From positions 3,072,001-3,136,000 of the forward strand of contig NZ_JAQNDL010000001.1 of NCBI RefSeq assembly GCF_028368995.1: a stretch of DNA of 64,000 nucleotides. The letters run 5' to 3'. Every line of letters begins with the position of its first letter. Position 1 is the first letter of the stretch. Both the position numbers and the translations under genes were made by a program. The notes beneath the pieces were generated by a model. It was not told the DNA's origin, searched no databases, and saw only the letters and a list, made by a program, of their open reading frames with translations. Source of the DNA: Nannocystis bainbridge. Lineage in GTDB: Bacteria > Myxococcota_A > Polyangia > Nannocystales > Nannocystaceae. Below, piece by piece: positions 3,830 through 61,755 of this stretch.

Positions 3830-4003
3830 TTTTTCTTCAAGAGACCGGGCCGCACCGGGATGCGCGTCGTAAGCACGAACGAGATGTCCCTCGGGACATC
3901 TTCTTACACATGCTCCTTGGGACATGTCCCCGAGGACATTCGATTCGCCCCGACGCAGTCACCCTCGCGGTGCTCCGCCGCCGGACGGTGCTATCCTCGC
4001 CGC

Positions 4004-4951
4004 ATGCGCCTCGCCGTCGGCGTCCCTCTCGCGCTCTGCGCCCTCGCAGCCTGCTTCTCCGACAGCCCGCCGCAGCTGTCCACCGGCGGAGCCACGACCA
4101 CCGGCGACCTACCCCCCACGACCTCGACCGCGACGGGCGCGAACTCGACCTCGAGCTCGAGCACGAGCGAGCCCACGACCACCGACGCGCTCACCACCGA
4201 AGCGCCCACCACCGGCGGCTGTCCCATGGGCCAGCCCGAGACGCCCTGGTACCTCGACGGCGACGGCGACGGCTTCGGCGCCGGCGATCCGGCCGGGGTC
4301 GCCTGCGAGCCGCCGCCCGGCGCGGTCCTGGTCGCCGGCGACTGCGACGACACCGCGATCGCCATCAACCCCGACGCCGACGAGCTCTGCAACGCCGGCG
4401 TCGACGACGACTGCGACGGCCTCGTCGACGAGCACTCGCCCGCCAACCTCGAGTGCGACGGCTGCAGCCTGTCGGCGCTCGGCGACGCCACCTTCTGGGT
4501 CTGCAGCCAGCCGCTCGCCTTCAGCCCCGGCGAGGCCTTCTGCCAGCAGTACGGCGCCGCGGTCCACCTGGTCCACCCGCGCAACCCCACCGAGCTGGCC
4601 TTCGTCCGCGACCGCGTCCTCGACCACCTCGGCCAGCAGCCGGCCGAGCTGGGCTTCTGGACCGGGCTGCACCGCCGCGAGGCGCTGTGGGACGCCTGCA
4701 CCGTCAACCCGGACGCCATCGACTGGGTCGCGCTCGACGGCGCGCCCGTCGACTACCTGCCGTGGCGCCTCGGCGAGCCCAACAACGAGGACTGCTCCCC
4801 GCTGTGCACCACGGACGTCCTCGATGACCCCGAGTGCCCGCGCGAGAATTGCATCGAGCTCGCCGAGACCGCCACCGGCGCCTTCAACGACCGCGCCTGC
4901 AGCACCGCCGCCGCCGGCCTGGTCTGCCAGGCCCGTATCGTCGACCCCTGA
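4004..4951 (+). CDS. Lipoprotein with DxDGDG/GDCDD metal-binding-type motif and C-type-lectin-like C-terminal domain
   Basis: Lipobox LAAC; WYLDGDGDGFG...GDCDD...INPDADELCN.GVDDDCDGLVDE; FWTGL, W..GEPNN, ENCIEL, FNDRAC of C-type lectin folds. Confidence 0.75.
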   Translation: MRLAVGVPLALCALAACFSDSPPQLSTGGATTTGDLPPTTSTATGANSTSSSSTSEPTTTDALTTEAPTTGGCPMGQPETPWYLDGDGDGFGAGDPAGVACEPPPGAVLVAGDCDDTAIAINPDADELCNAGVDDDCDGLVDEHSPANLECDGCSLSALGDATFWVCSQPLAFSPGEAFCQQYGAAVHLVHPRNPTELAFVRDRVLDHLGQQPAELGFWTGLHRREALWDACTVNPDAIDWVALDGAPVDYLPWRLGEPNNEDCSPLCTTDVLDDPECPRENCIELAETATGAFNDRACSTAAAGLVCQARIVDP

Positions 4952-5183
4952 CACTGACATGTCCTTGAGGACATGTAGTTCCACACACCCGAGCGTCACT
5001 TCCTGCGTACGGCCCGAAGAACATGTTCCGAAAGACATGTAGGTCACCGCTCGGGCCGGCCTCACGCCGCCCACCCGATCTACCGCGGCCCACGCCCAGG
5101 AGCCCACCCCACCGGGCGACATGTCCCCGAGACCGCGTCCGGCCACTCCCGCGCCTCCTCGCCCCTGACCTGCCAGCCCCGCG

Positions 5184-5214
5184 ACCGTTCGACCGCCGCC
5201 CGCGACCGTTCGCC
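5184..5214 (+). promoter_or_regulatory. Tandem LytTR-type binding boxes (ACCGTTCGAC, ACCGTTCGCC), 21 bp apart
   Basis: Direct repeat at 5184 and 5205 resembling the AlgR-type LytTR site ACCGTTCGTC, upstream of an operon encoding a LytTR regulator. Confidence 0.7.
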
Positions 5215-5269
5215 CGCCCGGCCGCGCCCGCGCGGACGACCGCGTGCCACCTTGCGCGTCGAGCCCTCG

Positions 5270-5386
5270 ATGTTCGCCCTCTTGCACAGCGTCTTCGCCC
5301 TCCTCCTCTCCCTCTTGCCGCTCGCGCTCGCGGCCGCGGCCTTCTTGCCGCTGCTCGACCTCGCCGCGCTGGAGGACCGGCGATGA
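5270..5386 (+). CDS. 38-aa hydrophobic small protein (MFALLHSVFALLLSLLPLALAAAAFLPLLDLAALEDRR)
   Basis: Below ORF-track cutoff; GC3-rich codons; TGA overlaps next ATG (ATGA 5383-5386); contains GGAGG before the next start. Confidence 0.55.
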   Translation: MFALLHSVFALLLSLLPLALAAAAFLPLLDLAALEDRR

Positions 5387-5985
5387 GCGCCCTCGCCCGC
5401 AAGCGCGCCTTTGACCTCGCGCTGCTGCTCCCGCTGGTCCCGCTGTTCGCCGTCGCCGTCGCCGCCCTCGCCTGCGGCGTGCTGCTGTGCGACGGTCGGC
5501 CGATCTTCTTCGCCCAGCCGCGCATCGGTCGCGACCGGCGGGTCTTCCACATCCTCAAGCTGCGCACCATGACCTGCGAGCCCGACCCCGCCGCGCGCCG
5601 CCCGACCCGCTTCGGCCGGTTCTTGCGCCTGCGCGGCCTCGACGAGCTGCCGCAGCTGTTGGTCAACGTCCTGCGCGGCGACATGAGCCTCGTCGGGCCG
5701 CGTCCGCTCACCGCCGCCGACGCCGAGCGGCTGATCGCCGAGCACCCGCCGTTCGCCCGCCGCTTCGACGTCCCGCCCGGGCTCACCGGCCTGGCCCAGG
5801 TCTACCTGGCCCAAGGGTCAGCCTTGACCGCCGCGCTCGACGCCGCCTACGCTGAGCAGCGCACCGCCCTGCTCGACCTCCGGATCCTCCTGCGCACCGC
5901 CTGGATGAACCTCGTCGGCAAGCGCCGCGGCGCCCTCCGCACCACGCTCCCGATCGGCCGCCCTCGCCACCTCTCATGGCCCTGA
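5383..5985 (+). CDS. Small monotopic phosphoglycosyl transferase (bacterial sugar transferase, PglC/WcaJ-like)
   Basis: KRAFD, FFAQPRIG, KLRTM, GLDELPQL, GDMSLVGPRP, PGLTGLAQV motifs. Confidence 0.9.
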   Translation: MSALARKRAFDLALLLPLVPLFAVAVAALACGVLLCDGRPIFFAQPRIGRDRRVFHILKLRTMTCEPDPAARRPTRFGRFLRLRGLDELPQLLVNVLRGDMSLVGPRPLTAADAERLIAEHPPFARRFDVPPGLTGLAQVYLAQGSALTAALDAAYAEQRTALLDLRILLRTAWMNLVGKRRGALRTTLPIGRPRHLSWP

Positions 5986-6992
5986 TCGTCTCCACGCTGC
6001 AGGCCCTGCTCGCCCCCCGGCGGCTGGTCCCGATCGTGCTCGTCAGCGTCCCGCTGGTCGTCGCCCAGTACCGCTACTCGCCCGCACGCGACCCTGGCGC
6101 GGTCGTCGTCGGCCTCGCCATGTGCCTCGTGTTCGCGCTGATCGCCCCGTGGCTGTGGCGCGCCACGGCCACCCGCGGCTGGCTCGGCCTCGCGCTCTAC
6201 GGCCTCGTCGGCGCCGCCTTCGTCGCCGTCCTCGGCGTCCTCCTCCCGGCCGTGTTCGGCGTCGGCCGCACCTTCCTCACCGAGGACGCCAGCTTGCTGG
6301 TCGCCCTCGCCCTGTTCCTCGTCGGCGGCTGGGGTCTCGGCCGCGACATCGACCTCGAGGCCAGCCTCGACCGCGAGCGTGCCCGCGTCGGGGCGCTCGC
6401 CCGCGAAGCCGAGCGCGCCCAGCTGCTCGCCCTGCGCAGCCACCTCGACCCGCACTTCCTCTTCAACACCCTCAACGCCATCGCCGAGTGGTGCCGCACC
6501 GACGGCGAAGTCGCCGAGCGCGCCGTCCTGCGCCTGTCCGCCATGCTGCGCACGATCCTCGACGGCGTCCGCCTGCCCGCCTGGTCGCTGCGCCGCGAGC
6601 TCGACCTCTGCCGCGACCTGTTCGCCCTCCACGCCGTGCGCGACCCCGGCCGCTTCGACTGCACCGTCGACGGCGACCCCGGCGACATCGCCGTCCCCCC
6701 GCTGCTGCTGCTGCCGCTGGCCGAGAACGCGATCAAGCACGGCCCGGCCGCCGGCCACCGCGGGCCGGTCCGCATCCACCTGTCCTTGGGGCCATCCGGC
6801 CTGCAGATCGTGATCGACAACCCCGGCCCGTTCACCGGCCCGCGCCCCGGCGGCGAGGGCCTGCACATGGCCCGCCGCCGCCTCGACCTCGCCTACGACG
6901 GCCGCGCCGACCTCGTCATCGGCCCCGCCGACCACGGCACCCGCGCCGTCGTCACCATCCCCACCGGCCCCCCGCCCACGGTGGTCACATGA
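5976..6992 (+). CDS. Membrane sensor histidine kinase, LytS/YehU family
   Basis: About 4 TM helices, LDPHFLFNTLNAI H-box, ENAIKHG N-box, GxGL G-box. Confidence 0.9.
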   Translation: MALIVSTLQALLAPRRLVPIVLVSVPLVVAQYRYSPARDPGAVVVGLAMCLVFALIAPWLWRATATRGWLGLALYGLVGAAFVAVLGVLLPAVFGVGRTFLTEDASLLVALALFLVGGWGLGRDIDLEASLDRERARVGALAREAERAQLLALRSHLDPHFLFNTLNAIAEWCRTDGEVAERAVLRLSAMLRTILDGVRLPAWSLRRELDLCRDLFALHAVRDPGRFDCTVDGDPGDIAVPPLLLLPLAENAIKHGPAAGHRGPVRIHLSLGPSGLQIVIDNPGPFTGPRPGGEGLHMARRRLDLAYDGRADLVIGPADHGTRAVVTIPTGPPPTVVT

Positions 6993-7134
6993 GCCGCAGA
7001 ATCAACCTGTCCCTTCAGACACCCACCTATCTTCACCAGGCGCAGCGCCGCCGTGCACAAAGGACATGTCCCCTCGGACATGCGTAACCGCAGCACCTGC
7101 CGACCCGCCGCTCAACCGCCTTCACCACGTCCCG

Positions 7135-7863
7135 ATGACCTCCCTTTTATTAAAAATTCTCGTCGTCGATGACGAGGAGCTGGCGCGGCGGCGGCTGGTC
7201 CGGCTGCTCGCCGACCTCCCTGGCGTCGAGCTCGCGGGCGAGTGTGACGCCGGCCAGGCAGCGCTCGCGCGCCTGCGCGACCCGGAGGCCGAGGTCGACG
7301 TCGTATTGCTCGACATCCGCATGCCCGGCCTCACCGGCCTCGAGACCGCGGCCCTCCTCGGCGACGACGGCCCCTACGTCATCTTCACCACCGCGCACGA
7401 CGAGCACGCCGTCGACGCCTTCGACCTCGGCGTCGTCGACTATCTGTTGAAGCCGATCGAGGCCGTGCGGCTGCACCGCGCGCTCGAGCGGGCGCGTCAG
7501 CGCCTCGGCGGCCAGCGTGGCGGCCCGCGCGAGCTCGTGCGCCTGCCGGTCACCACCCGCGAGGGCATCCTCCTCGTCGACCCGCAGGCCCTGAGCCACG
7601 CCGTGTTCGACGGCGCCCTCGTCACCCTCCACCTCGACGGCCGCACCCTGCTCACCGACCAGAGCTTGCAGGACCTCGAGGACAGGCTGCCCGCCGCCGC
7701 CTTCGAGCGCGTCCACCGGCGCGCCCTCGTCAACCTCGAGAAGATCGAGCGCCTCGAGCCGCTCGACACCGGCGGCTACAACGCCCGCATGCCCGGCGGC
7801 GACCTCGTCCCGATCTCCCGCCAGGCCGCCCGCCGCCTGCGCCGCCGCCTCGGCCTGTCCTGA
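7135..7863 (+). CDS. LytTR family response regulator
   Basis: VVDDE, LLDIRMPG, FTTA, DYLLKP receiver; FERVHRRALVN and VPISR LytTR motifs. Confidence 0.92.
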   Translation: MTSLLLKILVVDDEELARRRLVRLLADLPGVELAGECDAGQAALARLRDPEAEVDVVLLDIRMPGLTGLETAALLGDDGPYVIFTTAHDEHAVDAFDLGVVDYLLKPIEAVRLHRALERARQRLGGQRGGPRELVRLPVTTREGILLVDPQALSHAVFDGALVTLHLDGRTLLTDQSLQDLEDRLPAAAFERVHRRALVNLEKIERLEPLDTGGYNARMPGGDLVPISRQAARRLRRRLGLS

Positions 7864-7920
7864 AGGACAGCCCGCCGACCGCCGCCGCCTCGGCGGGTCC
7901 TGAAGGACAGCCCGCCGACC
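7856..7920. repeat. 40-bp-spaced direct repeat GTCCTGAAGGACAGCCCGCCGACCGC carrying the 14-bp palindrome
   Basis: Copies begin near 7857 and 7897; the first overlaps the LytTR stop codon. Confidence 0.8.
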
Positions 7921-8075
7921 GCTCGCGCGGACGCCCGGCCCCGCGAGCTCCGTCGCGCCGCGGACCCGACGCGCTCGCAGGGTCGCCACGGCTGCTCCTT
8001 CGCATGTCCCAACGGACATGTCCATCAGGACATCGACCGCCGCCGTTCACCCCAGTCCGCGCGCAGCCGACCCTG

Positions 8076-8999: not shown

Positions 9000-9058
9000 G
9001 GTCCGACATCATGACGCCGCGCCTCGCCAGCGGAACTGCGCCGCAGGTGATGCCCGCC

Positions 9059-10072: not shown

Positions 10073-10220
10073 GATCCGCAGTGCACCACATCTTGCGCCG
10101 TTTTACACGCGCCGCCGGGCCCAGGGCGCGAGCGCCCCGGCAAAAATCAAATGTCCCGGCGGACATGTCGCTCGGGACCCGCGGGCCCTGGACAATCAAC
10201 ATGTCCGTTCGGACATGTCC

Positions 10221-10592
10221 TCAGATACTGCCCGCGAGCACCGCCTTGCAGCTGCCCGCCTCGCACGCGCAGTGGCCCCCGCAGTCCATCGTGTTCGGCG
10301 CGCACTGCATCGTGCACATCACGTCGGTGCAGTCCGGCTTCTGCGCCGCGGGCACGCAGCTCGCGGGGTGGCAGCACGAGGCCGGCACGCAGTCCGCGTC
10401 GACCTTGCAGGTGCCCTCGACCTCGCCGCCCTCGGCGCCCGCGGTCACCGGCTTCGGCGGCTCGCTGACGGGCGGAGGCTCGGTCGCCGGCTCGGCCGCG
10501 GGCTTCGGCTGGCAGGCCGCGACCAGGGCGAGCAACGCCGCCCCGAGGCAGCGGGACGGCACGGAGAGGTCCTTCGAGAGACGGGCAAGCAT
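10221..10592 (-). CDS. Small Cys-rich lipoprotein
   Basis: Lipobox VAAC, Pro-rich linker, compact C-terminal domain with many Cys (CxxDADC...CC...). Confidence 0.7.
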   Translation of the reverse strand: MLARLSKDLSVPSRCLGAALLALVAACQPKPAAEPATEPPPVSEPPKPVTAGAEGGEVEGTCKVDADCVPASCCHPASCVPAAQKPDCTDVMCTMQCAPNTMDCGGHCACEAGSCKAVLAGSI

Positions 10593-12185: not shown

Positions 12186-12332
12186 GGGAGCGGGCTGCCT
12201 AGCACGGCGCCCAACCGCGAGCAACCACGCGGCCCGGGGCTCGCGTGGCGTGCCGTGCGCCCGGCGCGAGCCCGGCCGTCCGCAGACCGCTCGCACCTGA
12301 GTTTCCGAGATGTCTCAAAAGACAGCTTGTGT

Positions 12333-12764
12333 TCACACGCCGGTGCGCACCAGCGCCGGCCGCTCGGGGTCAGCCCCCGGCAGCGTCGCCGCCTCGGCCA
12401 GCGCCGCCGTCACCTCGTCCGCCCGCGCCCCGCCGAACTCCGCGTCGGCCAGCAGGCGCACCAGCGGATGCGTCGCCCCGCGAGCGGCCGCCCGCCACGC
12501 CTGCGTGCTCGCGCCCACCGTCACCGCGTCGATCGTGCCCGCCGCCTGCAGCGCGCGCAGGTGAGCCACCACCAGCCCGCGGACCTCGTCGCACAGCCAG
12601 TCCCAGTCGACCTCCCAGTCGCGGACCAGCGCGCGCAGCTCGGGCTCGGGCAGCGGCACCGCGTAGAGCTCGAAGCCCCGCGGGTACGCCGACACGTGGG
12701 CCTCGGCCGCTGCAGAGGCGAGCGCGCGCAGCGGCGCGGCGAGGGCATCGAGCAGGTCCTGCAC
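12333..12764 (-). CDS. Hypothetical protein
   Basis: Codon usage and co-orientation with flanking minus-strand genes; no motif recognised. Confidence 0.55.
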   Translation of the reverse strand: MQDLLDALAAPLRALASAAAEAHVSAYPRGFELYAVPLPEPELRALVRDWEVDWDWLCDEVRGLVVAHLRALQAAGTIDAVTVGASTQAWRAAARGATHPLVRLLADAEFGGARADEVTAALAEAATLPGADPERPALVRTGV

Positions 12765-13211: not shown

Positions 13212-13922
13212 TCACGCTAACACGGGCGCGGCGGCCTGGGTCTCGCACACCCGTCGCCGCACCCCGGTGACGAGGCTCCACAGCCGCCGCGGCGCCCCCT
13301 CGATCGCCAGCGCGCGCAGCGTCGCTCGGTGATCGATCAGCACCAGCGTGCACGCGGCCGCGGCCACCACGAACCACACCGCGCTGAAGATCGCCCGCCG
13401 CCACGGCGACGCCGTCTGTTGGCGGAAGAATCCGCAGTGGAACTCGAGGTGGGCCTCCTCGTCGCCGCAGATCTCCCGCAGCACCTGTCCCATCGAACAG
13501 GTCCCCAATCGCTCCGCGATCATCCCGTAGAAGCCGATGCCGATGACCTCGGCCACCAGCAGCACCAGCAGCTTGAGTCGCAGCCCCAGCAGCCGGCGCC
13601 CGTGCACGAACAGGCGGTCGGTCCACGCCGAGCCGCGCAGCGATCCTCCCAGGGCGCGCACCATCGCCGCCAGGATCCGCGCATGCCGGCCCTCTTCCTT
13701 GACGAACAGCTTCAGCGCCGCCCGATAGTCGGCGTCGACGCCTGCCAGGTGCGAGCGCTCGATCTCGCGGACGATCCGCCCCTCACCGCTCTCGCCGACC
13801 TGGAAGATCGCCAGCGACCGGCACAGCGGCGCCTGCCAGCGCGGCGGCACCCCTGCGGCCTCGACCACCGGCAACGGCCTGCGCGCGTTCTCTTCGAAGT
13901 GCTGTCTCCACGGGCTCCACAT
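13212..13922 (-). CDS. Ferritin-like (di-iron) domain protein
   Basis: FQVGE, EEGRH, AE, DEEAH: two ExxH motifs; GGAGG upstream. Confidence 0.75.
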   Translation of the reverse strand: MWSPWRQHFEENARRPLPVVEAAGVPPRWQAPLCRSLAIFQVGESGEGRIVREIERSHLAGVDADYRAALKLFVKEEGRHARILAAMVRALGGSLRGSAWTDRLFVHGRRLLGLRLKLLVLLVAEVIGIGFYGMIAERLGTCSMGQVLREICGDEEAHLEFHCGFFRQQTASPWRRAIFSAVWFVVAAAACTLVLIDHRATLRALAIEGAPRRLWSLVTGVRRRVCETQAAAPVLA

Positions 13923-15122: not shown

Positions 15123-15156
15123 AAAACAAAAACGCCGAGGAGAGCGTCCTCGGCGT
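15123..15156 (-). terminator. Rho-independent terminator after the tRNA
   Basis: Stem ACGCCGAGGA/TCCTCGGCGT followed by a T-rich run on the minus strand. Confidence 0.8.
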
Positions 15157-15240
15157 GGTGCGAAGGGAGGGACTCGAACCCTCACAGGTTACCCCACCAG
15201 ATCCTTAGTCTGGCGCGTCTACCAATTCCGCCACCTTCGC
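15156..15240 (-). tRNA. tRNA-Leu, anticodon AAG
   Basis: GCGAAGG acceptor stem, D-loop AATTGGTAGA, anticodon arm CCAGA-CTAAGGA-TCTGG, long variable arm, GTTCGAGTC T-loop, A73 and encoded CCA. Confidence 0.93.
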
Positions 15241-23354: not shown

Positions 23355-23424
23355 TGTCTGATGCGACATGCTCTCTCGAGCATGTCCGAGCGGCCATGCT
23401 CCATCGAGCATGTCTGAATAGACA
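23355..23424. repeat. Array of five 14-bp palindromic units
   Basis: TGTCT-gatg-CGACA, TGCTC-tctc-GAGCA, TGTCC-gagc-GGCCA, TGCTC-catc-GAGCA, TGTCT-gaat-AGACA in exact register. Confidence 0.9.
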
Positions 23425-23494
23425 TGTCCGGATCGGCGACTGGGGCGCCGCTCCCGCGGCTGCAAGCGGCCCGCGGTTCGGCTATCCTGCGCGC

Positions 23495-24179: not shown

Positions 24180-24469
24180 GACGACCGAGATCGTCCTGAG
24201 GGTAGACCGGCGCGCGCGGGAGTCAACGCTCCGCAAGTGTATGCCGGCGACGCCACCGCCGCGCCCCGGATGGCCCTCGCCGCGGGCGCCAAAACCGCCG
24301 TCCTGGCTATTGACTGCCCGCCCTTTACGACATGTCTCATAAAACATGTTCAAAGGACCAGGACGATGCCGCTCGCCGCCGCGCCCGAGCCTGCCCGCAC
24401 GCGTGCTACCCTCCGCCTTCCGCCCATGCCTCCCGCGCTCGCCATGCCGCGTCATCTCCTCGAGGTCGC

Positions 24470-25330
24470 ATGACCGGCGCCCGCCAGCTCGCCGAGCTCG
24501 CCCGCGCCGACACCAAGTGGACCGCGATCGAGGCCATCTGCGAGGGTCCCGCCGACGACCTGCTCGCTGCGGCGCGGACCCAGTTCGCGACCACCCCGAA
24601 TCGCCGCGCCGACCTGATCGCGCTGCTCCGGCGGCTACCCGGTGGCCCGGCCGAACAGCTGCTCGTCGAGTGGCTCGACGATGCTTTTTCCACCCAACAC
24701 GCCGCGGTCCTCCGCGTCCTGGCCGAGCGCCGGGCCAGCGTGCCGAGCGCGATCCTGGAGCGCATCCTCGCCGCCGCCACGCCGCGCACACCGAAGGCCG
24801 CGGCAAAAATCGCTGAAAAAACCCGCCGCGATTTCGAGCAATTGCTCGCGGCCGTCGGCTGCCTCGGCGACGCCTCGATCGCGCCGCTCGTCGCCCGTCA
24901 CCTCGACGCCCACCCCGCCACCGCGGCGCTCGCCCTCGGCCGCCTCGGCGCGCGCGATCACATCCCCGCGCTGCTCGACCGTCTCCCGCGGGTCGAAGCC
25001 GCAGCGCAGTCCGCCATCGTCGCCGCCTTCGAGCTGCTGGACGACGCCTCCGTCGCGCCCGCCTTGCTCGCGTGGCTGCGCGCGAGCGCTGGTTCGACGA
25101 GGCGCTGCGATCCAGATGACCGCAAACACATGCTCCATCGGACATGCTCCATCGAGCATGTCCGAAAAGTCATCTCTCTCGTTCACCCCGTCCGCGCGCG
25201 CAGGATCTCCAGCCATTTGCGCCCGCTCATCGCCAGGATCGCCACCACGCACGCCAGCAGCGTCCCCGTCACGATCGTGTTGACGATCCCCATCGTCGCC
25301 GTCGCCGGGTCGCGGGTCATCGGCACGTAG
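24470..25330 (+). pseudogene. HEAT-repeat-like protein, probably truncated near 25100
   Basis: Helical repeats (AALALGRLG, LGDASI.PL); the frame then runs through a 14-bp array and overlaps the convergent cstA end by ~148 bp. Confidence 0.5.
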
Positions 25331-33476: not shown

Positions 33477-33955
33477 GCGCCTCCTGTCTAGGCCGCCGGG
33501 CCGGCGATCGTCAAGGCGCCACCACCCCGCGACCGGTCACGGCTCGAGCTCGCCGCGTCACCGGCGGCCGCCGCGGTCCAAAACATGTCCCCGAGGACAT
33601 GTCACTGCGTCAGCCGGGATCTCGACCACGCCCCGGCCGGACCGCGAGGGGTCGCCCGTGCGCGCGGACGGCCGCCGCGATCGCGGCGCGACGCGTGGTC
33701 GAGATCCCGCACCGACGCCGCATTTCATCGTACCTCGCGGGTGGTGGCGGCCGCGACATCGGGGGCGACCAGGGCGGACAGGGCGGCGATCGAGCCGCCG
33801 ACGACGAGGACCCCGAGCAAATAGAGGGCACCGGGGCCGCGAGGACGATAGCGAGGACGCGTCATGATCGGGGTCAACGACGCCCGCCGCCCCGCGGTCT
33901 GCCCCCGCTGTCACACTTCTCGCGCCGGGCGACCTCGGGTACTCTGGACGTCGGC

Positions 33956-40004: not shown

Positions 40005-40060
40005 TGTCCGAACGGACATGGCCTCTTGGACATTACCAAAAAGACATGTCCTCACGGACA
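40005..40060. repeat. Array of four 14-bp palindromic units
   Basis: TGTCC-gaac-GGACA, TGGCC-tctt-GGACA, TTACC-aaaa-AGACA, TGTCC-tcac-GGACA. Confidence 0.85.
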
Positions 40061-42517: not shown

Positions 42518-44119
<1,602 letters not shown>

Positions 44120-44163
44120 GCCCGCGCCCTCGTGGCACCCATCGCCCTTGCGACTGCACGTCT

Positions 44164-44218
44164 TGTCCTTCGAACATGTCCTCATGCACATGTTTTTAAG
44201 GACATGTTCTTTCGAACA
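44164..44218. repeat. Array of four 13-14-bp palindromic units
   Basis: TGTCC-ttc-GAACA, TGTCC-tcat-GCACA, TGTTT-ttaa-GGACA, TGTTC-tttc-GAACA. Confidence 0.8.
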
Positions 44219-47297: not shown

Positions 47298-47565
47298 GAC
47301 ATACTCACAGTTTCTCCTGGTCCTCCCAGGTGCACGCAAAAAGAGACCCTCGGGGTCCGCACCCGAAAGATCCCGTACCTTCAATGCATCACATGTCCAT
47401 TCGGACATACGCAGCATTGAGATCCCACGCGAAGATCCCGCCCGTCACCGGCGACCGCCGGCGTGAACGAATCACGCCGGGCGCCGGCGCTCAGGCGCCG
47501 AAAACCTCGCAGACCGGGTCTGCCACCCGATCAAAGCGTCCTGCAGCTCGCCCGGAGCCGCCGCC

Positions 47566-50580: not shown

Positions 50581-50597
50581 GGTCGCACACCCGCCCC

Positions 50598-51386
50598 ATG
50601 CCCATCCGCTCGCTCGTCGCCTCCGCCCTGTTCGCCGTGGTCGCCTCGCTCGGCTGCAACTTCATCATGAACCCCGACGGCGACGGGATCTTCCGCTGCG
50701 ACAACGCGGACGACTGCGACGTCCCCCTGGCCGAGCACCTCTCCGACAAGCGCGGGCAGTCGAGCTGCGCCGCGGCCGGCGGCGGCGGCGGCGGCTTCAC
50801 CCAGAGCCAGGACAACAAGGTCTGCAGCATCCTCGACAAAGAGGACGTGAGCTGCAACCCGGCGCCCTACCTCGACGACGACAGCGTCCCGGTCGCCAAG
50901 ACCTACAACGACGCCCTCGACGAGGCCGCCGCGTACTCGTGCGCCCCCGAGCAGTACGGCAGCGCCGGCTGTCCGCCCAACGGCAGCGCCTGCAACGCCG
51001 GCCTGCAGGTCCGCACCTACGAGTCGCTGAGCGGCGACGCCGGCAACCCGGAGCAGACCGAGGTCAAGGTGTGCGCGCCCGAGGGCACCGCCGCCGTGAT
51101 CGGCAACAGCGCCCTGCGCGGCTTCGACGTGCTCGACCAGCACTGCCGCTCGTACTTCTGCGACGAGGACTTCGTGTGCAACCGCGGCAGCGGCACCAGC
51201 AGCGGCTGGCGCTGCGTCCGCTGCGACCCCGACCGCGCCTACGGCAACGGCGGCTGCGGCACCATGTACCTGCAGGGCGCCCCCTCGACGGTCTACACCG
51301 ACCCCAGCAAGTCCTGCGAGAGCGTCGCCGCCGCCGACAAGACCGACTTCGGCCCCGCCGTCCTCGCGCCGCCCCCGGCCCCCTGA
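50598..51386 (+). CDS. Cys-rich lipoprotein
   Basis: Lipobox SLGC; multiple paired Cys; strong coding bias. Confidence 0.75.
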   Translation: MPIRSLVASALFAVVASLGCNFIMNPDGDGIFRCDNADDCDVPLAEHLSDKRGQSSCAAAGGGGGGFTQSQDNKVCSILDKEDVSCNPAPYLDDDSVPVAKTYNDALDEAAAYSCAPEQYGSAGCPPNGSACNAGLQVRTYESLSGDAGNPEQTEVKVCAPEGTAAVIGNSALRGFDVLDQHCRSYFCDEDFVCNRGSGTSSGWRCVRCDPDRAYGNGGCGTMYLQGAPSTVYTDPSKSCESVAAADKTDFGPAVLAPPPAP

Positions 51387-51403: not shown

Positions 51404-51487
51404 TGTCCCTGCGGACATGCCCCTCCGGGCATGTCCCTGCGAGCATGCCCCCGCGAGCATGTTCCTGCGAACATGTCCCTCCGGACA
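51404..51487. repeat. Array of six 14-bp palindromic units upstream of iadA
   Basis: TGTCC-ctgc-GGACA, TGCCC-ctcc-GGGCA, TGTCC-ctgc-GAGCA, TGCCC-ccgc-GAGCA, TGTTC-ctgc-GAACA, TGTCC-ctcc-GGACA. Confidence 0.92.
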
Positions 51488-51570
51488 TGCCCTTCGCGGC
51501 CCGTCCTGGCGCCCGCTCCGCGCGCCGCGGGCTTCCCGGCACGGACGAGCTCGGCTAGACTCGCCGGTCG

Positions 51571-52791
51571 ATGGCGGGCTCCTCTGGCGCTTCCGGACAT
51601 GTCCCTTCGGCCAGCCCGCCGCTGCTGCTGCTGCGCGGCGCCGAGGTGTTCGCCCCCGCCGCGCTCGGCGTCTGCGACGTCCTGCTCGCCGGCGGCAAGA
51701 TCGCCGCGATCGCCCCCGAGCTGCCGGCCCTCCCGCCCGAGCTCGCGGCCGTGCACGACCTCCGCGGCCACCGGCTGATCCCCGGCCTCATCGACGCCCA
51801 CGTCCACCTCATCGGCGGCGGCGGCGAGGCCGGCCCGAGCACCCGCGTCCCGCCGATCACCCTCAGCCAGCTCACCCGCGCCGGCATCACCTCCGTCGTC
51901 GGCGTCCTCGGCACTGACGGCACCACCCGCACCGTCGCCGACCTCGTCGCCCGCACCCTCGGCCTGCGCGACGAGGGCCTGTCCGCCTGGTGCTACACCG
52001 GCAGCTACGAGCTGCCCGTGCCCACGCTCACCGGCAGCGTGCGCCGCGACCTCGTGTTCGTCGACCCGATCATCGGCGTCGGCGAGCTGGCCCTGTCCGA
52101 CCACCGCTCCTCCCAGCCGACCCTCGACGAGCTGCTGCGGGTCGCCGCCGACGTCCACGTCGGCGGCATGATGGCGGGCAAGGCCGGCATCGTGCACCTG
52201 CACATGGGCGACGGCCTGCGCGGCCTCGACCTCGTGCGTCGGGCCCTCGACGTGAGCGAGCTGCCGCCGCGGGTGTTCCACCCGACCCACGTCAACCGCA
52301 ACCGGCGGCTGTTCATCGAGGCGGGCGAGCTCGTCGCGCGCGGCTGCAGCGTCGACGTCACCGCCTTCCCGCCCGAAGATGACCCCGGGGACAGCCTCTA
52401 CGCCGCCGACGCGATCGACCGCTGGATCGCGCAGGGCCTGCCGGTAAGCCGGCTCACGTGCTCCTCCGACGGGGCCGGCTGCATGCCGGTGTTCGACGGC
52501 CACGGGCACATCTGCGCCATGGACGTCGGCCGTCCGACCACCCTCAGCGACACCCTGACCGAGCTCCTGGCCCGCGGGCGGGACCTCGCCGAGGTCCTCC
52601 CGATCTTCACGGTCAACGTCGCCGACCTCCTGCGCCTCGGGCACAAGGGCCGGCTCGCCGCGGGGGCCGACGCCGACCTCGTCGCCCTCGACGACCACGG
52701 TCACATCGCCGGCGTGATCGCCCGGGGCAGGTGGCTGATCCAGGGCGGTCAAACAGTGGTATGCGGGCCCTTCGAGAGGTCTGCCTCGTGA
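51571..52791 (+). CDS. iadA: Isoaspartyl dipeptidase (beta-aspartyl peptidase)
   Basis: PGLIDAHVHLIGGGGEAG, VGVLGTDG, TGSY, GELALSDHRSS, HMGDG, PTH.NR, SSDG.G. Confidence 0.95.
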   Translation: MAGSSGASGHVPSASPPLLLLRGAEVFAPAALGVCDVLLAGGKIAAIAPELPALPPELAAVHDLRGHRLIPGLIDAHVHLIGGGGEAGPSTRVPPITLSQLTRAGITSVVGVLGTDGTTRTVADLVARTLGLRDEGLSAWCYTGSYELPVPTLTGSVRRDLVFVDPIIGVGELALSDHRSSQPTLDELLRVAADVHVGGMMAGKAGIVHLHMGDGLRGLDLVRRALDVSELPPRVFHPTHVNRNRRLFIEAGELVARGCSVDVTAFPPEDDPGDSLYAADAIDRWIAQGLPVSRLTCSSDGAGCMPVFDGHGHICAMDVGRPTTLSDTLTELLARGRDLAEVLPIFTVNVADLLRLGHKGRLAAGADADLVALDDHGHIAGVIARGRWLIQGGQTVVCGPFERSAS

Positions 52792-56564: not shown

Positions 56565-56585
56565 CCTGACCCGAAGGACAGGACC

Positions 56586-58469
56586 ATGCGACTCCTCGAC
56601 GCCCGCCGGCTGACCGGGGTCAACCTCGACCTCGACGGCCCGGGCGCGATCGCCGAGGTCGAGTTCGAGCCCGGCGACGACCTCGCGCGGGCCCTCGCCG
56701 CCTGGCGGGACGCGGTCGCCCGCGCGGCCGCGCGGCTCGGCTGGCACGCGCCGACGACCGTGCGTCGGTGGGCTGGCGATCACGGCGCGGCTCTGGTGTT
56801 CCCGGCCCCGCCCGACGCGCTCTACGTCGCCGTCGACGTCACCGAGTGGGCCGTCGAGTGCGCCCAGCGGGCGCTGACCGGCGAGCCCCCGCGCGACCTC
56901 GAAGCGCTCCTGCCCGACCTGCTGGCGGCCCGCGAGCGCGAGCGCCTCGCCGTCCTCCCCGAGCTGCAGGCCGCCGCCGCCGCCCGCGGCGTCCCGCTGC
57001 TGCTCGACGACGACAGCCTCTCGCTCGGCGAGGGCGCCAGCTCGCGCACCTGGCCGCGGATCCTCGCGCCCTTGCCCGCGGATGTCCCCTGGGACAGCTT
57101 GCGAGCGATCCCCGTCGCCATCATCACCGGCACCAACGGCAAGACCACCACCGCGCGCCTGCTGGCCCGGATCGCCCGCACCGCCGGCCATGTCCCCGGC
57201 AACACCTCCACCGACGGCCTCGCCGTCGCCGAGCAGGTGGTCGAGACCGGCGACTGGACCGGCCCCGGCGCCGCCCGCATCGTCCTCCGCGACCACCGCG
57301 TCACGCTCGCCGTGCTCGAGGTCGCCCGCGGCGGGATCCTCCGCCGCGGCCTCGCGGTCGACCGCTGCGACGCCGCCTGCATCACCAACGTCGCCGCCGA
57401 CCACCTCGGCGAGCACGGCATCGACGACCTCGCCGCCATGGCCCGCGTCAAGGCCGTGGTCGCCCGCGTGGTCGCTCCCCACGGCCGCGTCATCCTCGGC
57501 GCCGACGCCCCGGCCGGCGTGCCTGCCTCATCGGACATGTCCGAAGCGACCTTGCCGAAAGGCCATGTCCATGCAGACATGCCCCTTCGGACATCCGCGC
57601 CGACGAGCGCCGCGTCTGCCCCTTCGGACAGCGGCAATTTACCTGCTCTTTCAGCCAGCGCTGCCAACCCCCTGCTCGACCTCCCGCCCGAGGCCTTCTC
57701 GGCGCCGGTCGTGTGGTTCTCGCGCGACCCGCAGCACCCGCGCCTGCTGCGTCACCGCGCGGCTGGCGGCGAGGTGTGGTTCGTCTCGCCCGCGGGGACG
57801 CTCACGCGCGGCCGCGGGGCCGAGCCCGACGTCGCCATCGTGCCCGTCGCCGAGCTCCCGTTCTGCTTCGGCGGGGCCGCCACGCACAACGTCGCCAACG
57901 CCCTCGCCGCCGCCGCCCTGGCGACCGCGCTCGGCCTGCCCGACGCCGCCATCGCCGCCGGCCTGCGCAGCTTCGACGACAACCCCGGGCGCGCCCAGTT
58001 GGTCCAGGTCGGCCACGCCAAGCTGTTCCTCGACTTCGCCCACAACCCCGCCGGCATCGCCGGCCTCGCCCCGCTGCTCGGGCAGATCCGCGCCGGCGCG
58101 CGCTTATTGATCAGCCTCGGCATCGCCGGCGACCGCCGCGACGAAGACCTCCGCGACGTCGCCCGCGCCGTCGCCTCGCTGCGCCCCGACCTCGTGCTCA
58201 CCCGCGACCTCGATCACTACCTGCGCGGACGGGCCCCGGGCGAGGTCCCGGGGCTGCTGGAGCGCAACTTCGCCGCGCTCGGGATCGCGTGCGAGCGGAC
58301 CGCGAGCGAGGTCGCGGCGATCCGTCGCGGCCTGGAGTGGGCGCGGCCTGGCGACCTGATCGCGATCCTCGTGCACGTCGACCGCGACGAGGTCTGGGCT
58401 GAACTGCGCGCCCGCGGCGTCGCGACCGCGGCCGATGGAGACCGATCCGGGCGCCCCGGAGCGGCGTAA
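56586..58469 (+). CDS. CphA-related Mur-ligase-like protein lacking the ATP-grasp domain
   Basis: CphA-like N-terminus (RRLTG.NL), then ITGTNGKTT, EVARGGILRRGL, NVAADHLG, NPGR, DFAHN, GDR; no ATP-grasp motifs. Confidence 0.85.
   Translation: MRLLDARRLTGVNLDLDGPGAIAEVEFEPGDDLARALAAWRDAVARAAARLGWHAPTTVRRWAGDHGAALVFPAPPDALYVAVDVTEWAVECAQRALTGEPPRDLEALLPDLLAARERERLAVLPELQAAAAARGVPLLLDDDSLSLGEGASSRTWPRILAPLPADVPWDSLRAIPVAIITGTNGKTTTARLLARIARTAGHVPGNTSTDGLAVAEQVVETGDWTGPGAARIVLRDHRVTLAVLEVARGGILRRGLAVDRCDAACITNVAADHLGEHGIDDLAAMARVKAVVARVVAPHGRVILGADAPAGVPASSDMSEATLPKGHVHADMPLRTSAPTSAASAPSDSGNLPALSASAANPLLDLPPEAFSAPVVWFSRDPQHPRLLRHRAAGGEVWFVSPAGTLTRGRGAEPDVAIVPVAELPFCFGGAATHNVANALAAAALATALGLPDAAIAAGLRSFDDNPGRAQLVQVGHAKLFLDFAHNPAGIAGLAPLLGQIRAGARLLISLGIAGDRRDEDLRDVARAVASLRPDLVLTRDLDHYLRGRAPGEVPGLLERNFAALGIACERTASEVAAIRRGLEWARPGDLIAILVHVDRDEVWAELRARGVATAADGDRSGRPGAA
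57524..57657. repeat. In-frame array of 14-bp palindromic units inside the cphA-like gene
   Basis: Five units in register 57524-57593 plus units at 57617 and 57644. Confidence 0.85.
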
Positions 58470-58495
58470 GAGCGTGACGACCTCGCACGCTCACC

Positions 58496-59763: not shown

Positions 59764-59769
59764 CTCGCC

Positions 59770-59811
59770 TGCCTCCCGGGACATGTCCGAGTGGACATGC
59801 CCCGAAAGACA
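59770..59811. repeat. Array of three 14-bp palindromic units
   Basis: TGCCT-cccg-GGACA, TGTCC-gagt-GGACA, TGCCC-cgaa-AGACA between convergent genes. Confidence 0.85.
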
Positions 59812-59875
59812 TGCCCGAAAGCACCCGCAGCCGGGGCTGCCCTCGCACCGCGCCGCACGCCGGCGCATCGGGGAG

Positions 59876-60262
59876 CTACCCGTGGTTCATCAGGAAGGTC
59901 GCGGTGTCGGCGAAGAACCCCCGCAGCGTCGCCGCCGCCCCCGGCTCGAGCTGGACCTCGGCGAGCGCCGCTTCCATCAGCGCCACCCAGCGATCGCGGG
60001 CGCGCAGGTCGAGCTTGAAGGGCATGTGCCTGGCCCGCAGCCGCGGATGGCCCCGCTGCGCGATGTAGCGCTGCGGACCGCCGAATCGGCCGACCAGGAA
60101 GTCGCGCAGGCGGACCTCGGCCCCGGTCATGTCGTCGCGCGGGTACATCGGCCCCAGGATGTCGTCGTCGACCACGCGGCGATAAAAGGCCGCTGCCAGC
60201 CGCGCAAAGCCCTCCTCGCCGATCCGGGCGTAGATCTCGTGTTCCGGCGCCTGCTCGCTCAT
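59876..60262 (-). CDS. Group II truncated hemoglobin (HbO-like)
   Basis: IY..IG, FY, MYP, FGGP..Y...RGHPRLRARH, RDRW, FLMN. Confidence 0.9.
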   Translation of the reverse strand: MSEQAPEHEIYARIGEEGFARLAAAFYRRVVDDDILGPMYPRDDMTGAEVRLRDFLVGRFGGPQRYIAQRGHPRLRARHMPFKLDLRARDRWVALMEAALAEVQLEPGAAATLRGFFADTATFLMNHG

Positions 60263-60532
60263 CGGCGTCAGTGTGCCACGGGGCCTCGGCGCAGCCGCCG
60301 TCGCGGGCCGTGAGACAGCCGGCGCCGCCGAGCCGATCGCCGTGATCGCCGCCGCCGCCCGCGTGAACAAACTTCGGGCCGCGCGCACCCGGAAGTCCGC
60401 CGGGTCCCGGTGTCACCGCCCGCCGGGCGCGACCTGTCCCAAGGTAGGGGGACCGGGTCCGCGGCGCCCGCCCCGCCCGTCCTGCGCCGAGTTCTCCCGC
60501 CCGCGGCGAGCCCCGTGGTAGCCTGGACGCAG

Positions 60533-61441
60533 GTGCAGAGCCTGGCGCAGGACGAAGAGGACACCCTCGAAGCGGGCACCCTCGTCGCGACCTACTTCCG
60601 CGTGCTCGAGTTCATCGGCCCCGCCAACTTCGGCGATCTGTACCGCGGCGAGCACATCCAGATGGGCAGCCGCTGCGCCGTGCGGGTGCTCAGCCCGCAG
60701 TGGAAGAGCCTCGTGCGCGGCGACGAGGACGTCGACCGCTTCCGCCGCATGGCCCGCGCCGCCAGCGACACCTCGCACCCCAACATCGCGCAGGTGTTCG
60801 ACGGCGGCCGGCTGGCCGACGGCCGGCTGTTCCTGGTCACCGAGCTGCTGGTCGGCAGCAGCCTGTTCGAGGCCGTCGCCGAGCGGCGCTACCTGCCGGT
60901 CCTGCGGGCCGCGCGGATCCTCCGCGACGTCGCCCGGGCCGTGCGCGCCGCCCACAACGCCGGCCAGGTCCACCGCGACCTCAAGGCCGAGAACGTCATG
61001 CTCGTGCCGCTGCCCGACGGCGACGGCGAGGCCGTGCAGGTGCTCGACTTCGGCATCGCCGCCTGGGCCGAGGCCGAGGCGCGCAAGCAGAACCCCGGCG
61101 CCTTCGTGGCCACGCCCGAGTACATGGCCCCCGAGCAGGTGCTGGGCAAGCCCGCCAGCCCGCTGTTCGACATCTACGCCATGGGCGTGATGCTGTTCGA
61201 GGCCCTCGTCGGCGAGACCCCGTTCTCCGGCAACCCGCAGGCGCTGATGAAGGCCAAGGTCGCCCGCCCCGCACCCTCGCTCGCCAGCAAGCTGCCCGGC
61301 ATGCCGCGCCGCCTCAGCGAGCTGGTCGACGACTGCCTCCACACGGACCCCGGCCTGCGGCCCCAGAGCGCCAACGAGTTCGTGGTCCGCATCGAGGAGA
61401 TCCTCCGCACCTTGAACCGGACCTCGGGCCCGCAGACATGA
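60533..61441 (+). CDS. Ser/Thr protein kinase-like protein (Hanks type), possibly pseudokinase
   Basis: HPNI, HRDLKAEN, LDFGIA, TPEYMAPE, DIYAMG; Gly loop GPANFG and AVR in place of AxK; start estimated. Confidence 0.85.
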   Translation: MQSLAQDEEDTLEAGTLVATYFRVLEFIGPANFGDLYRGEHIQMGSRCAVRVLSPQWKSLVRGDEDVDRFRRMARAASDTSHPNIAQVFDGGRLADGRLFLVTELLVGSSLFEAVAERRYLPVLRAARILRDVARAVRAAHNAGQVHRDLKAENVMLVPLPDGDGEAVQVLDFGIAAWAEAEARKQNPGAFVATPEYMAPEQVLGKPASPLFDIYAMGVMLFEALVGETPFSGNPQALMKAKVARPAPSLASKLPGMPRRLSELVDDCLHTDPGLRPQSANEFVVRIEEILRTLNRTSGPQT

Positions 61442-61462
61442 GCCCGCGGGCCGCCCCCGGCC

Positions 61463-61755
61463 TGTCCTGAAGCACATGTCCCCCGGAACCTGCCCTCGGG
61501 ACCCTGTCCTGAAGCACATGTCCCCCGGAGCCTGTCCTCGCGCACCTGTCCCGCCGGGCAGCCCAGCCCCCGCCGCGGCCTGTCCTCGCGCACCTGTCCC
61601 GCCGGGCAGCCCAGCCCCCGCCGCGACCCGCCTTCGAGCAACTGTCCCGCCGGGCAGCCCAGCTCCCACCGGGTCCGCGGCCTCGATCGCCGCCGCTCGG
61701 CTCGCCACGCTCCTGGCCTTTGGAGCATGTTCCTCGAGCCCTGTCCCTTCCGACA
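61463..61755. repeat. Expanded nested array of 14-bp units with 42- and 48-bp higher-order repeats
   Basis: Seven units in register 61463-61560; TGTCCTGAAGCACA at 61463 and 61505; TGTCCCGCCGGGCAGCCCAGC at 61547, 61595 and 61643. Confidence 0.88.

Follow-up and report, generated by a model that had tools for sequence, protein, structure and literature searches.

The region examined is a 64-kb stretch of Nannocystis DNA (the window) from an 11-Mb genome of 72% G+C. Copies of a 14-bp palindrome, TGTCC-N4-GGACA, occur throughout it as tandem arrays and as single units (Table 1). The distance from a stop codon to the start of an array is usually 6–43 nt in the window. Every pattern-fitting site listed by an earlier, sequence-only reading of this DNA is present. 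Those that it placed at 23355, 39164, 44164, 56567 and 61463 are only near-units, which depart from the pattern at one position or a few.

Table 1. Arrays and single units of the palindrome in the window
Feature	Position	Context
Units flanking an ORF	3885, 3911-3938, 4960, 5010-5037	ORF 3860/3924-4951 (start uncertain)
Two single units	7008..7080	15 and 74 nt after stop of ORF 5976-6992
Single unit	7856-7869	Centre holds TGA stop of ORF 7135-7863
Two-unit array	8005-8032	Convergent gap
Two short arrays	10152..10229	Downstream of minus-strand ORF 10221-10592; last half-unit adjoins its stop codon
Single unit	12311..12324	8 nt after stop of minus-strand ORF 12333-12764
Six-unit array	23355..23438	Three units pattern-perfect; 11 nt after stop of starch-synthase-like gene 21895-23343
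Three-unit array	24319-24360	Separate from 25117..25172 array
Four-unit array	25117..25172	10 nt after stop of minus-strand ORF 25183-27252
Single perfect unit	33586..33599	Divergent gap
Four-unit array	40005..40060	26 nt after stop of minus-strand ORF 40087-41124
Four-unit array	44163..44218	43 nt after stop of ORF 42518-44119
Single perfect unit	47394..47407	Divergent gap; one unit in same gap in all four relatives
Longest clean array in window	51404..51501	Six pattern-perfect units and one degenerate; 17 nt after stop of ORF 50532-51386
In-gene array	57524..57630	Mur-ligase-like ORF 56586-58469; in-frame insertion of ~50 residues between M and C domains
Four-unit array	59770..59825	Convergent gap; 6 and 50 nt past the two stops
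Degenerate array merging into unit-carrying 48-bp tandem repeats	61463..61656	21 nt after stop of ORF 60410-61441
Single units inside ORFs	13486, 15790, 31116, 32383, 33370, 35177, 57083, 59213	Most conserved in relatives

Abundance, phasing and variation of the unit

The loose form of the unit, TGYYYN4RRRCA, occurs 50 times in the window. In 100 dinucleotide shuffles the mean was 1.88 and the maximum 8. For the strict form, TGTCCN4GGACA, the count was 19 and the shuffled expectation 0.03. The repeat is real as a genome-wide feature: 5521 loose units are spread over all five contigs. The genome carries the palindrome chiefly in phased arrays close behind stop codons. Hence, the sequence-only reading was right to call the motif highly iterated and chromosome-wide. 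It had recognised no described element, and our full-text literature searches found no description of the repeat either. We conclude that it matches no described repeat family.

Successive units are separated by 14 bp (811 cases), 28 bp (271), 42 bp (128) or 56 bp (53), and genome-wide no spacing of 13 or 15 bp was found. The exact 14-bp register claimed earlier is thus borne out. A neighbour at +/-14 scores as a unit in 42% of cases, against 0.3–0.8% off register. Adjoining units are joined through a common CATG with zero spacer, and so abut in exact register, as boxes do in cooperative protein-binding arrays. The unit is symmetric (5-N4-5), and its flanks are likewise symmetric, with R-C-[A/C] on the left and [T/G]-G-Y on the right. 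Array length is bimodal. The second mode lies at 5–6 units (70–84 bp) and is stable across thresholds; arrays of 4, 5, 6 and 7 units number 181, 322, 226 and 69. Such a mode fits a complex of fixed size. This preferred length had escaped the sequence-only reading.

Within arrays, the outer TG and CA are 94–100% invariant and the inner positions variable. From unit to unit, and from array to array, the 4-nt centres show no relationship, and they differ as previously described: they are identical in only 43 of 811 adjoining pairs (8.6 expected) and complementary in 20 of 811 (8.5 expected). Nor are they oriented with respect to transcription (as in CGAA 86 versus TTCG 66). The earlier claim that arms co-vary within a unit fared poorly. 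Over all 5521 units, positions 2–11 gave a chi2 of 194 against 110–122 for unpaired control positions, and in arrayed units the value for paired arm positions fell to 0.8. Neither within-unit nor long-range compensatory covariation, nor centre complementarity, was found in 299 five-unit and 204 six-unit arrays. Base pairing is a poorer explanation of the weak arm covariation than a mixture of unit subtypes.

Arm variants differ by strand near stop codons. On the sense strand, 573 were of T.G type and 393 of C.A type (p 8e-9). In-gene units have no such asymmetry (479 versus 508), and background skew was only -0.02 to -0.03. The wobble-type excess forms a gradient: it weakens along an array and reverses across convergent ones.

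Placement at gene ends and within genes

The share of motif-bearing gaps, by the rough GC3-based gene caller made for this analysis, on which all gene-context numbers rest, was 57% for convergent, 26% for co-oriented and 15% for divergent gaps. Motif density on the same rough calls was 5.47, 1.90 and 0.61 per kb, respectively. Gaps are therefore not marked regardless of orientation, as had been proposed. That reading missed how strongly the units favour the 3' ends of genes. Genes adjoining units have unrelated functions and Pfam families.

Among 4786 gene 3' ends with a downstream gap of at least 60 nt, 1771 carry an array, whereas 191 (~4%) have a canonical hairpin-plus-T terminator. Mutual exclusion between arrays and canonical terminators was not found in this set. 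A T-tract follows arrays no more often than in a mirror control (37/782 versus 39/782). Of two predicted RNA folds, one reached -64.8 kcal/mol (z -5.3), the other -47.7 kcal/mol (z -2.7). The mean folding z was -3.52 for array-bearing 3' regions, -1.06 for array-free 3' regions and -0.18 for 5' controls; 26% of array-free 3' regions and 9% of controls fell below -2.

Units are also abundant inside genes, which the earlier reading overlooked. Interior coding DNA holds 635 strict units, compared with 4.2 in codon shuffles (roughly 150-fold), and 1375 loose units, compared with 87.8. The palindrome is hence over-represented in coding and non-coding DNA alike, as is HIP1. Coding-like flanks were found on both sides of 791 of 1332 in-gene arrays, so that coding-like DNA holds ~18% of all arrays (791/4280). 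Arrays of three or more units occur in 100 coding-like contexts. In-gene single units are kept across five species, and those at 13486 and 31116 arose by point change. The insertion in the Mur-ligase-like ORF is absent from one genome of the same genus and from three other genera. Read from the sequence, the consensus arms hold a stop codon in no frame.

Conservation, phyletic spread and candidate machinery

Arrays hold their position across five species. Comparison of orthologous loci for gain and loss of units, suggested at the outset, revealed that unit number varies at the same gaps. For instance, the gap at 51404 contains 2, 0, 3 and 2 units in four relatives, while the 23355 array has the same place and register in three of the four. 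One relative carries fresh tandem copies of a unit. Across species, identity was 0.89–0.98 at TG/CA positions and 0.56–0.67 in centres (90 unit-relative pairs), figures that are possibly too high, since the arms guide how repeats align. We queried 13 single-unit sites of the window. Three gave no alignment, and 12311 aligned only out of register; of the 10 that aligned, 9 have a unit in the relatives aligned, or a near-unit that differs at one base. In this window sample, sites are conserved between related genomes in a HIP1-like manner.

Every Nannocystis genome searched is rich in the motif. Genomes of two sister genera contain single sites (161 versus 1 for a control in G013; 87 versus 10 in G011), and neither has a double unit. 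This single-site form had not been noticed before. Most genera of the family are without enrichment.

We searched for machinery that might spread or use the repeat. RAYT (Y1 transposase, PF01797), a check proposed by the sequence-only reading, was found in 0 of 11 Nannocystis genomes, including the present one at 90% completeness; the same search matched 6 of 14 control genomes. A search for Vsr gave a match in 1 of the 11 and none in this genome. Non-self matches of 500 bp or longer number only 98 genome-wide. Three IS-like families were among the repeat families with at least two extra copies whose ends were read; their ends are unlike the unit, and no parent insertion sequence emerged. None of the viral contigs carries a double unit. 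A PadR-type operator, ATGT-N8-ACAT, resembles the motif in the available part of its description (PMC5050560). PadR, the one protein family tested by its motif, was rejected as partner: PF03551 had 0 matches in this genome, and matches in 4 of the 10 other genus genomes.

Interpretation of the arrays

Our working preference, held tentatively and with less than even confidence, is that a putative dimeric protein with sequence specificity binds the arrays cooperatively as duplex DNA, and that slippage alters their length. The unit would be the recognition site of a lineage-specific protein that binds as a symmetric dimer, with TGYCC and GGRCA as half-sites on either side of four unspecified bases. 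The ancestor that Nannocystis has in common with the two sister genera may have had roughly 100–160 scattered single copies. In Nannocystis, tandem duplication would then have multiplied the site into abutting arrays with common CATG junctions, placing neighbouring dimers exactly 14 bp apart. Selection would maintain the half-sites while the centres drift. Arrays may have settled at ~5–6 units just after genes, where tolerated, and could there block or bound transcription or supercoiling. The data establish how abundant the units are, their phasing and placement, how they are conserved, the modes of array length, the traces of duplication and the phyletic spread; we infer the protein partner, its binding to DNA rather than RNA, and the effect of binding. 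A cooperative dimer array was among the options first put forward; it now leads, with its partner still putative.

Several observations point this way. The anatomy of the unit (5-N4-5 palindrome, symmetric flanks, unoriented centres) is that of a dimer site, and half-sites vary independently, with no compensatory covariation. The exact register and the 5–6-unit mode also count for a protein dimer, as do the occurrence of single sites only in sister genera and the stronger conservation of TG/CA than of centres. The in-gene excess and the kept in-gene units suggest that the site is favoured away from 3' ends too. Identical adjoining centres, fresh tandem copies and variable unit number are traces of slippage. 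Conversely, the sense-strand T.G-type excess near stops is as RNA G-U pairing would allow, and argues against DNA–protein recognition. Post-stop placement and strong predicted folding are equally expected of an RNA element.

MetJ boxes, omega heptads and ParR iterons are short boxes repeated at an exact spacing that brings neighbouring protein units into contact. The Nannocystis arrays resemble such ribbon-helix-helix and partition operators. However, those number one or a few per genome, at promoters or centromeres, whereas the present arrays are genome-wide. Within the phylum, CdbA of Myxococcus offers a precedent. This sequence-biased, moderately specific nucleoid protein gave 569 ChIP peaks, and its more than 500 sites lie within genes as well as in gaps (PMC7156744). 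Its motif is directly repeated across a 4-bp gap (PMC7156744), whereas our unit is inverted.

The main rival reading, possible if on balance unlikely, is that the arrays work as RNA. Like REP/BIME elements, 3'-untranslated arrays would fold, and end transcripts or shield them from 3' exonucleases. They could form stacked mini-hairpins or, because neighbouring arms also pair, one long interrupted hairpin; between convergent genes these would act in both directions. The constant arm sequence would be a legacy of how the repeat spread. Arrays far outnumber canonical terminators, begin soon after stops, and are commonest in convergent and rarest in divergent gaps. Their folding, and the wobble-type gradient, fit as well. 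Yet transcription-linked mutation bias can also yield strand asymmetry, and could instead account for that gradient. Compensatory covariation and a T-tract excess are both lacking in the arrays, and the presence of an array does not exclude a canonical terminator. Nor does this reading explain why single units are roughly 150-fold in excess in genes, why longer arrays occur in coding-like contexts or why sister genera have single sites. Intrinsic (Rho-independent) terminators are similarly placed just after stop codons and have strong predicted hairpins; we rejected this identity on the T-tract counts, and the arrays differ further in a stem that is constant across thousands of sites and in their copies inside genes.

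REP sequences bind gyrase or IHF and protect mRNA. In extracts from the literature, REP and REPIN are short palindromes, with hundreds to thousands of copies clustered in gaps at gene 3' ends, positions kept, copy number varying between relatives, and RNA hairpins possible. The present repeat shares these traits, its RNA hairpins being predicted ones. In contrast, the Nannocystis unit is only 14 bp and itself a perfect palindrome. REPINs are inverted pairs with a spacer, whereas these units abut head to tail. REPs are extragenic, unlike the many units and arrays in coding DNA, and the RAYT of REPIN–RAYT systems was found in none of the 11 genus genomes. Hence, the REP-like option of the sequence-only reading survives only in the sense of working like REP.

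A selfish or neutral palindromic mini-satellite without function seems improbable. It would expand by slippage or some mobiliser and survive where insertions are harmless, and long palindromes would be too unstable for it to lengthen without limit. Unit number that differs at the same gap, fresh tandem copies, the array-bearing Mur-ligase-like insertion and arms that are stop-free in every frame are all as expected, and tolerance alone predicts depletion in promoter-bearing gaps. Against it, arrays keep their positions across five species, with arms conserved while centres diverge. Because the centres are unrelated, copies do not descend from one master sequence. The RAYT search found nothing in the genus, long non-self matches are few, and the IS-like ends that were read are unlike the unit. 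Simple insertion cannot account for in-frame single 14-bp units, two of which came about by point change. For the same unrelated centres and unmatched IS-like ends, we rejected MITEs and Rickettsia palindromic elements (RPEs). No terminal repeats, target duplication or parent insertion sequence typical of a MITE is evident. RPEs lie in-frame inside protein-coding genes (PMC10969869), as does the one ~50-residue insertion confirmed here. They are ~150 bp long and form sequence families, whereas Nannocystis copies are alike in only 10 arm bases per 14-bp unit.

Uptake-sequence dialects are lineage-specific, and so is this motif. A putative drive (methylation-linked repair, or biased uptake or recombination) might enrich it as it may HIP1, with arrays as a by-product. 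We consider this very unlikely. HIP1 (GCGATCGC) of cyanobacteria is, in the abstracts, a lineage-specific palindrome, 15–300-fold over-represented and conserved within and between reading frames, with a proposed role in chromosome structure (PMC5861425); it is also tied there to orphan methyltransferases (PMC4390886). The Nannocystis palindrome shares the lineage specificity, the abundance in coding and non-coding DNA and the conservation. HIP1 is an uninterrupted octamer, whereas our unit is interrupted by N4, and phased tandem arrays and stop-proximal placement are not mentioned for HIP1 in these abstracts. Drive predicts neither the phasing nor the 5–6-unit mode. CATG is not avoided (observed/expected 1.19–1.24), nor unusual once arrays are masked (1.19). 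Together with the missing Vsr and the viral contigs free of double units, this weakens the HIP1-like methylation or repair option raised at first, although enrichment and conservation do remain HIP1-like.

An operator for one ordinary transcription factor's regulon is scarcely credible. The site is palindromic and operator-sized, and a few single units stand in divergent gaps, that at 47394 being kept in all relatives. Copy number (5521), a density lowest in promoter-bearing gaps and functionally unrelated neighbours contradict it, as the sequence-only reading had already judged.

A bolder form of the protein-binding reading is a long shot. Five to six abutting dimer sites could be protein-based, sequence-coded gene-end marks, where a coat of lineage-specific DNA-binding protein stops or insulates transcription, or traps supercoils; roughly one gene end in three would be so marked. 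Bacteria would then have their own version of roadblock termination, derived from a scattered single site of the kind that two sister genera still carry. Should the arrays indeed mark the ends of transcripts or the boundaries of domains, that would account for how genes are delimited in so large and G+C-rich a genome with few classical terminators. For Nannocystis, whose members are mined for natural products, the arrays would also help annotation straight away. The series from unenriched family genera, through single sites in two sister genera, to thousands of units with arrays is a rare natural case of a short site becoming a genome-wide repeat without a transposase. Units also supply proteins with in-frame peptide segments.

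Abundance, register and anatomy of the unit

The 14-bp unit is an inverted repeat with the loose form TGYYYN4RRRCA and the strict form TGTCCN4GGACA. In the 64-kb window, the loose form occurs 50 times (mean 1.88 and largest count 8 in 100 dinucleotide shuffles) and the strict form 19 times (0.03 in shuffles). Hence, the over-representation claimed by the sequence-only reading was borne out. The window corresponds to C1:3072001-3136000 of the source genome (11.05 Mb in five contigs, 71.5% G+C). The whole genome contains 5521 loose and 1987 strict units, and TGTCC is the top arm among its 30,718 perfect 5-N4-5 palindromes. Units occur on every contig, at 58-176 per full 250-kb bin. Mapping density against the replication origin and terminus, as had been proposed, revealed no gap near GC-skew switches in these bins.

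Units abut to form arrays with CATG at the junctions. Across the genome, successive units are spaced by 14 bp (811 cases), 28 bp (271), 42 bp (128) or 56 bp (53). Spacings of 13 or 15 bp are absent, confirming the 14-bp register noticed in the window. Consistent with this, the 14-mer at +/-14 is unit-like in 42% of cases, compared to 0.3-0.8% off register and a genomic background of 0.6%. Arrays of one to eight units number 2204, 827, 423, 181, 322, 226, 69 and 21, respectively. Array length is therefore bimodal; its further peak, at 5-6 units (70-84 bp), persists at three score thresholds.

Within arrays, TG and CA at the outer ends are almost fixed (94-100%). T and C each make up about half of position 2, whose partner is A or G; the inner CC/GG is conserved at 65-87% and the four centre bases are nearly free. 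Symmetry extends into the flanks, with CATGT-N8-ACATG the top palindrome of a 200-kb sample. Centres are not oriented with respect to the gene upstream, nor do stable UUCG-type loops favour the sense strand. The arms had been said to co-vary within units. This proved weak: association of positions 2 and 11 over all units (chi2 194) compares with 110-122 for unpaired control positions, and chi2 fell to 0.8 in arrayed units. Among 299 five-unit and 204 six-unit arrays, neither left-right arms within a unit nor partner arms of a long hairpin were associated beyond chance, and no centre complementarity was found.

Placement relative to genes and RNA-level signals

Gene contexts were assigned using our own rough caller, which relies on G+C at third positions and covers about 80% of the genome; these contexts are provisional. 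By this measure, 67% of units lie in the 20% of DNA without a called gene. Convergent gaps carry 5.47 units per kb, with at least one unit in 651 of 1136 (57%). The density is 1.90 in co-oriented gaps (852 of 3225 unit-bearing, 26%) and 0.61 in divergent gaps (169 of 1157, 15%). The 548 arrays of 5-6 units are divided as follows: 285 in convergent, 195 in co-oriented and 14 in divergent gaps, with 54 in called genes. We considered 4786 gene 3' ends that are followed by a gap of 60 nt or more. Arrays were present at 1771 and hairpin-plus-T terminators at 191, with no mutual exclusion of the two. In the window, the first unit begins 6-43 nt after the stop codon, and one unit has a stop codon within its centre. 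A window tRNA gene, the sole Rfam match, is followed by a classical T-tract hairpin; hence, canonical intrinsic terminators are used at some sites.

Several smaller observations concern gene starts and open reading frames (ORFs). Two unit-like sequences immediately precede start codons, where they overlap the presumed ribosome-binding site (AAGGGA / AAGGA); they are probably chance or dual-use matches, not true units. A conserved GGACATGTCC occupies the annotated start region of an amidohydrolase-like gene, in the window and in orthologues; translation may actually begin at the ATG inside the junction. Junction ATGs give rise to numerous false ORF starts in the source genome. Elsewhere in the window, 48-bp tandem repeats with one unit each overlap a putative ORF.

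Coordinates of features in the window and, for the GST-like copies, on contigs C2 and C5 of the source genome
Feature	Position	Strand	Sequence
Mur-ligase-like gene (Mur_ligase_M, Mur_ligase_C)	56586-58469		window
Insertion in Mur-ligase-like gene	about 57520-57680		window
tRNA gene, then G+C-rich hairpin with T-tract	15127-15240	minus	window
Unit-like sequences upstream of start codons	53687-53700; 56567-56580		window
Conserved junction, amidohydrolase-like gene	51571-51620		window
48-bp tandem repeats (unit copies 61547, 61595, 61643)	61533-61660		window
Putative ORF overlapping 48-bp repeats	61476-62609		window
GST-like gene, three copies	C2:960-1937; C5:711337-712314; C5:715592-716569		source genome

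Units are also in excess inside genes. Interior coding DNA of the source genome contains 1375 loose and 635 strict units, compared to 87.8 and 4.2 in codon shuffles. Coding-like composition on both flanks was found for 791 of 1332 in-gene arrays (512 with one unit, 179 with two and 100 with three or more). Most of 13 single units of the window, aligned to relatives, are conserved and two were born by one point change. A five-unit array lies within a stretch of about 50 residues inserted in frame into a Mur-ligase-like protein, between its M and C domains. The insertion is low-complexity and built largely of repeat units. It is common to five species, with varying length, and missing from another genome of the genus and from three other genera.

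As RNA, arrays are predicted to fold strongly (-64.8 kcal/mol, z -5.3; -47.7 kcal/mol, z -2.7), in part through additional pairing of each arm with that of the neighbouring unit. The mean fold z of the 100 nt after stops, from 450 sampled regions in each class, was -3.52 with arrays and -1.06 without; 5' control regions gave -0.18. Near stops, arm variants able to form G-U pairs on the sense strand are more frequent than those of the mirror type (573 versus 393), with a background skew of only -0.02 to -0.03. No asymmetry was found far from stops (179 versus 171) or for in-gene units (479 versus 508). The wobble-type excess declines along co-oriented arrays (0.62, 0.58, 0.55) and, in convergent arrays, reverses sign from one side to the other (0.52, 0.45, 0.39, counted on the strand of the left gene). 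This gradient is consistent with transcripts running into arrays and dwindling there. Transcription-linked mutation bias would leave the same pattern. T-tracts were not in excess downstream of arrays (37 of 782, versus 39 of 782 in the mirror control).

Phyletic spread and rejected candidates

Double units were sought in one genome per species across about 185,000 species. They were found in 49 stretches: 32 titled Nannocystis, 14 Mesorhizobium and 3 single metagenome bins. Double units are present in nine of the ten other genomes of the genus; none was found in eight other genera of the family, in twelve other families or in viral contigs. We read one of the 14 Mesorhizobium records. Here, the double unit lies in a 42-bp perfect palindrome (L007, 4318-4359) between two ORFs that, translated, resemble glycosyltransferases by eye. 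We rejected the match in this record as an unrelated coincidence.

Each Nannocystis genome contains 114-2090 strict single units (controls 1-6). Enrichment extends to two sister genera, with 161 in genome G013 (control 1) and 87 in genome G011 (control 10), compared to 3-5 in the remaining six family genera and 0-7 in other families. The G013 sites inspected (16 distinct places in 15 overlapping loci) all stand alone, and 7 of the 16 are within long GC3-rich stop-to-stop ORFs. No different but analogous palindrome was found in 200 kb of G011 and 41 kb of G013. Two places in this genome (loci L099 and L102/L103 of G013) share an approximately 500-bp segment that carries one unit.

A search for a RAYT gene flanked by arrays had been suggested. 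Y1 transposases were found in none of the 11 genus genomes and RAYT-driven spread was rejected. Long repeats are very scarce in the source genome, with 98 non-self matches that span 500 bp or more at 92% identity or above. Its three insertion-sequence-like families (1416, 1785 and 2034 bp, about three copies each) lack fitting ends; hence, we rejected units as footprints or solo ends of a CATG-targeting transposon. Among 158 genes with arrays on both sides, no transposase-like family recurs. A GST-like gene occurs in three identical copies, each bordered by the longest pattern-perfect six-unit arrays of the genome. This triplet is a segmental duplication at contig ends. A Vsr-type repair drive was discarded because Vsr was not found in the source genome. 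CATG is not avoided there (observed/expected 1.24, or 1.19 with arrays masked). PadR, compared by the motif given in PMC5050560, was dismissed as the binder since its gene was not found in the source genome. A CdbA-type motif (PMC7156744) was rejected because it is a direct repeat, whereas the unit is inverted.

Readings of the element and turnover of arrays

Tentatively, and at less than even probability, we favour the unit as the site of a putative symmetric, sequence-specific protein on duplex DNA. Half-sites decaying independently around a fixed consensus, near-invariant outer dinucleotides, a free 4-bp centre, exact phasing with a preferred array size, the strong in-gene excess and the single-site stage in sister genera fit such a protein better than a structure-selected RNA. 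A REP-like RNA role of arrays comes close behind and is possible, if somewhat doubtful; array placement, strong folding and the sense-strand variant asymmetry speak for it. These two readings need not exclude each other. REP elements bind gyrase or IHF and protect mRNA. Comparison was also made with MetJ, omega and ParR arrays.

That arrays are a mini-satellite expanding without function appears unlikely. A HIP1- or uptake-like drive is less probable still, and an operator of a single regulon is barely credible. Uptake sequences and the instability of palindromes were points of comparison. HIP1 was considered using PMC5861425, and RPE and MITEs using PMC10969869. The sequence-only reading did not recognise the element as described. 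In agreement, full-text literature searches combining Nannocystis or myxobacteria with repeat, REP, palindrome and arm words found no description.

Gain and loss of whole units between orthologous loci had also been raised. In four same-genus genomes, unit number at orthologous gaps does differ; array place and register are kept. One gap has 6, 2, 0, 3 and 2 units. Fresh tandem copies of a unit (four) were seen in one relative, and one other genome lacks the orthologous gap entirely. In the source genome, 811 adjacent pairs include 43 with identical centres (8.6 expected) and 20 with reverse-complementary ones (8.5 expected); most neighbouring centres differ, as stated earlier. Over 90 unit-relative pairs, cross-species identity is 0.89-0.98 at TG/CA positions and 0.56-0.67 at centres, figures that may be overstated because repeats can align by their arms. 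The orthologue of window 51387-51570 in the relative G010 (locus L057) is a 620-bp gap with a few ordinary units, filled by a 21-bp repeat (about GCACGYCCCTTCCGGCTCCGR) in roughly 20 copies. This repeat has CACG where the unit has CATG and could represent a separate family related to the unit.
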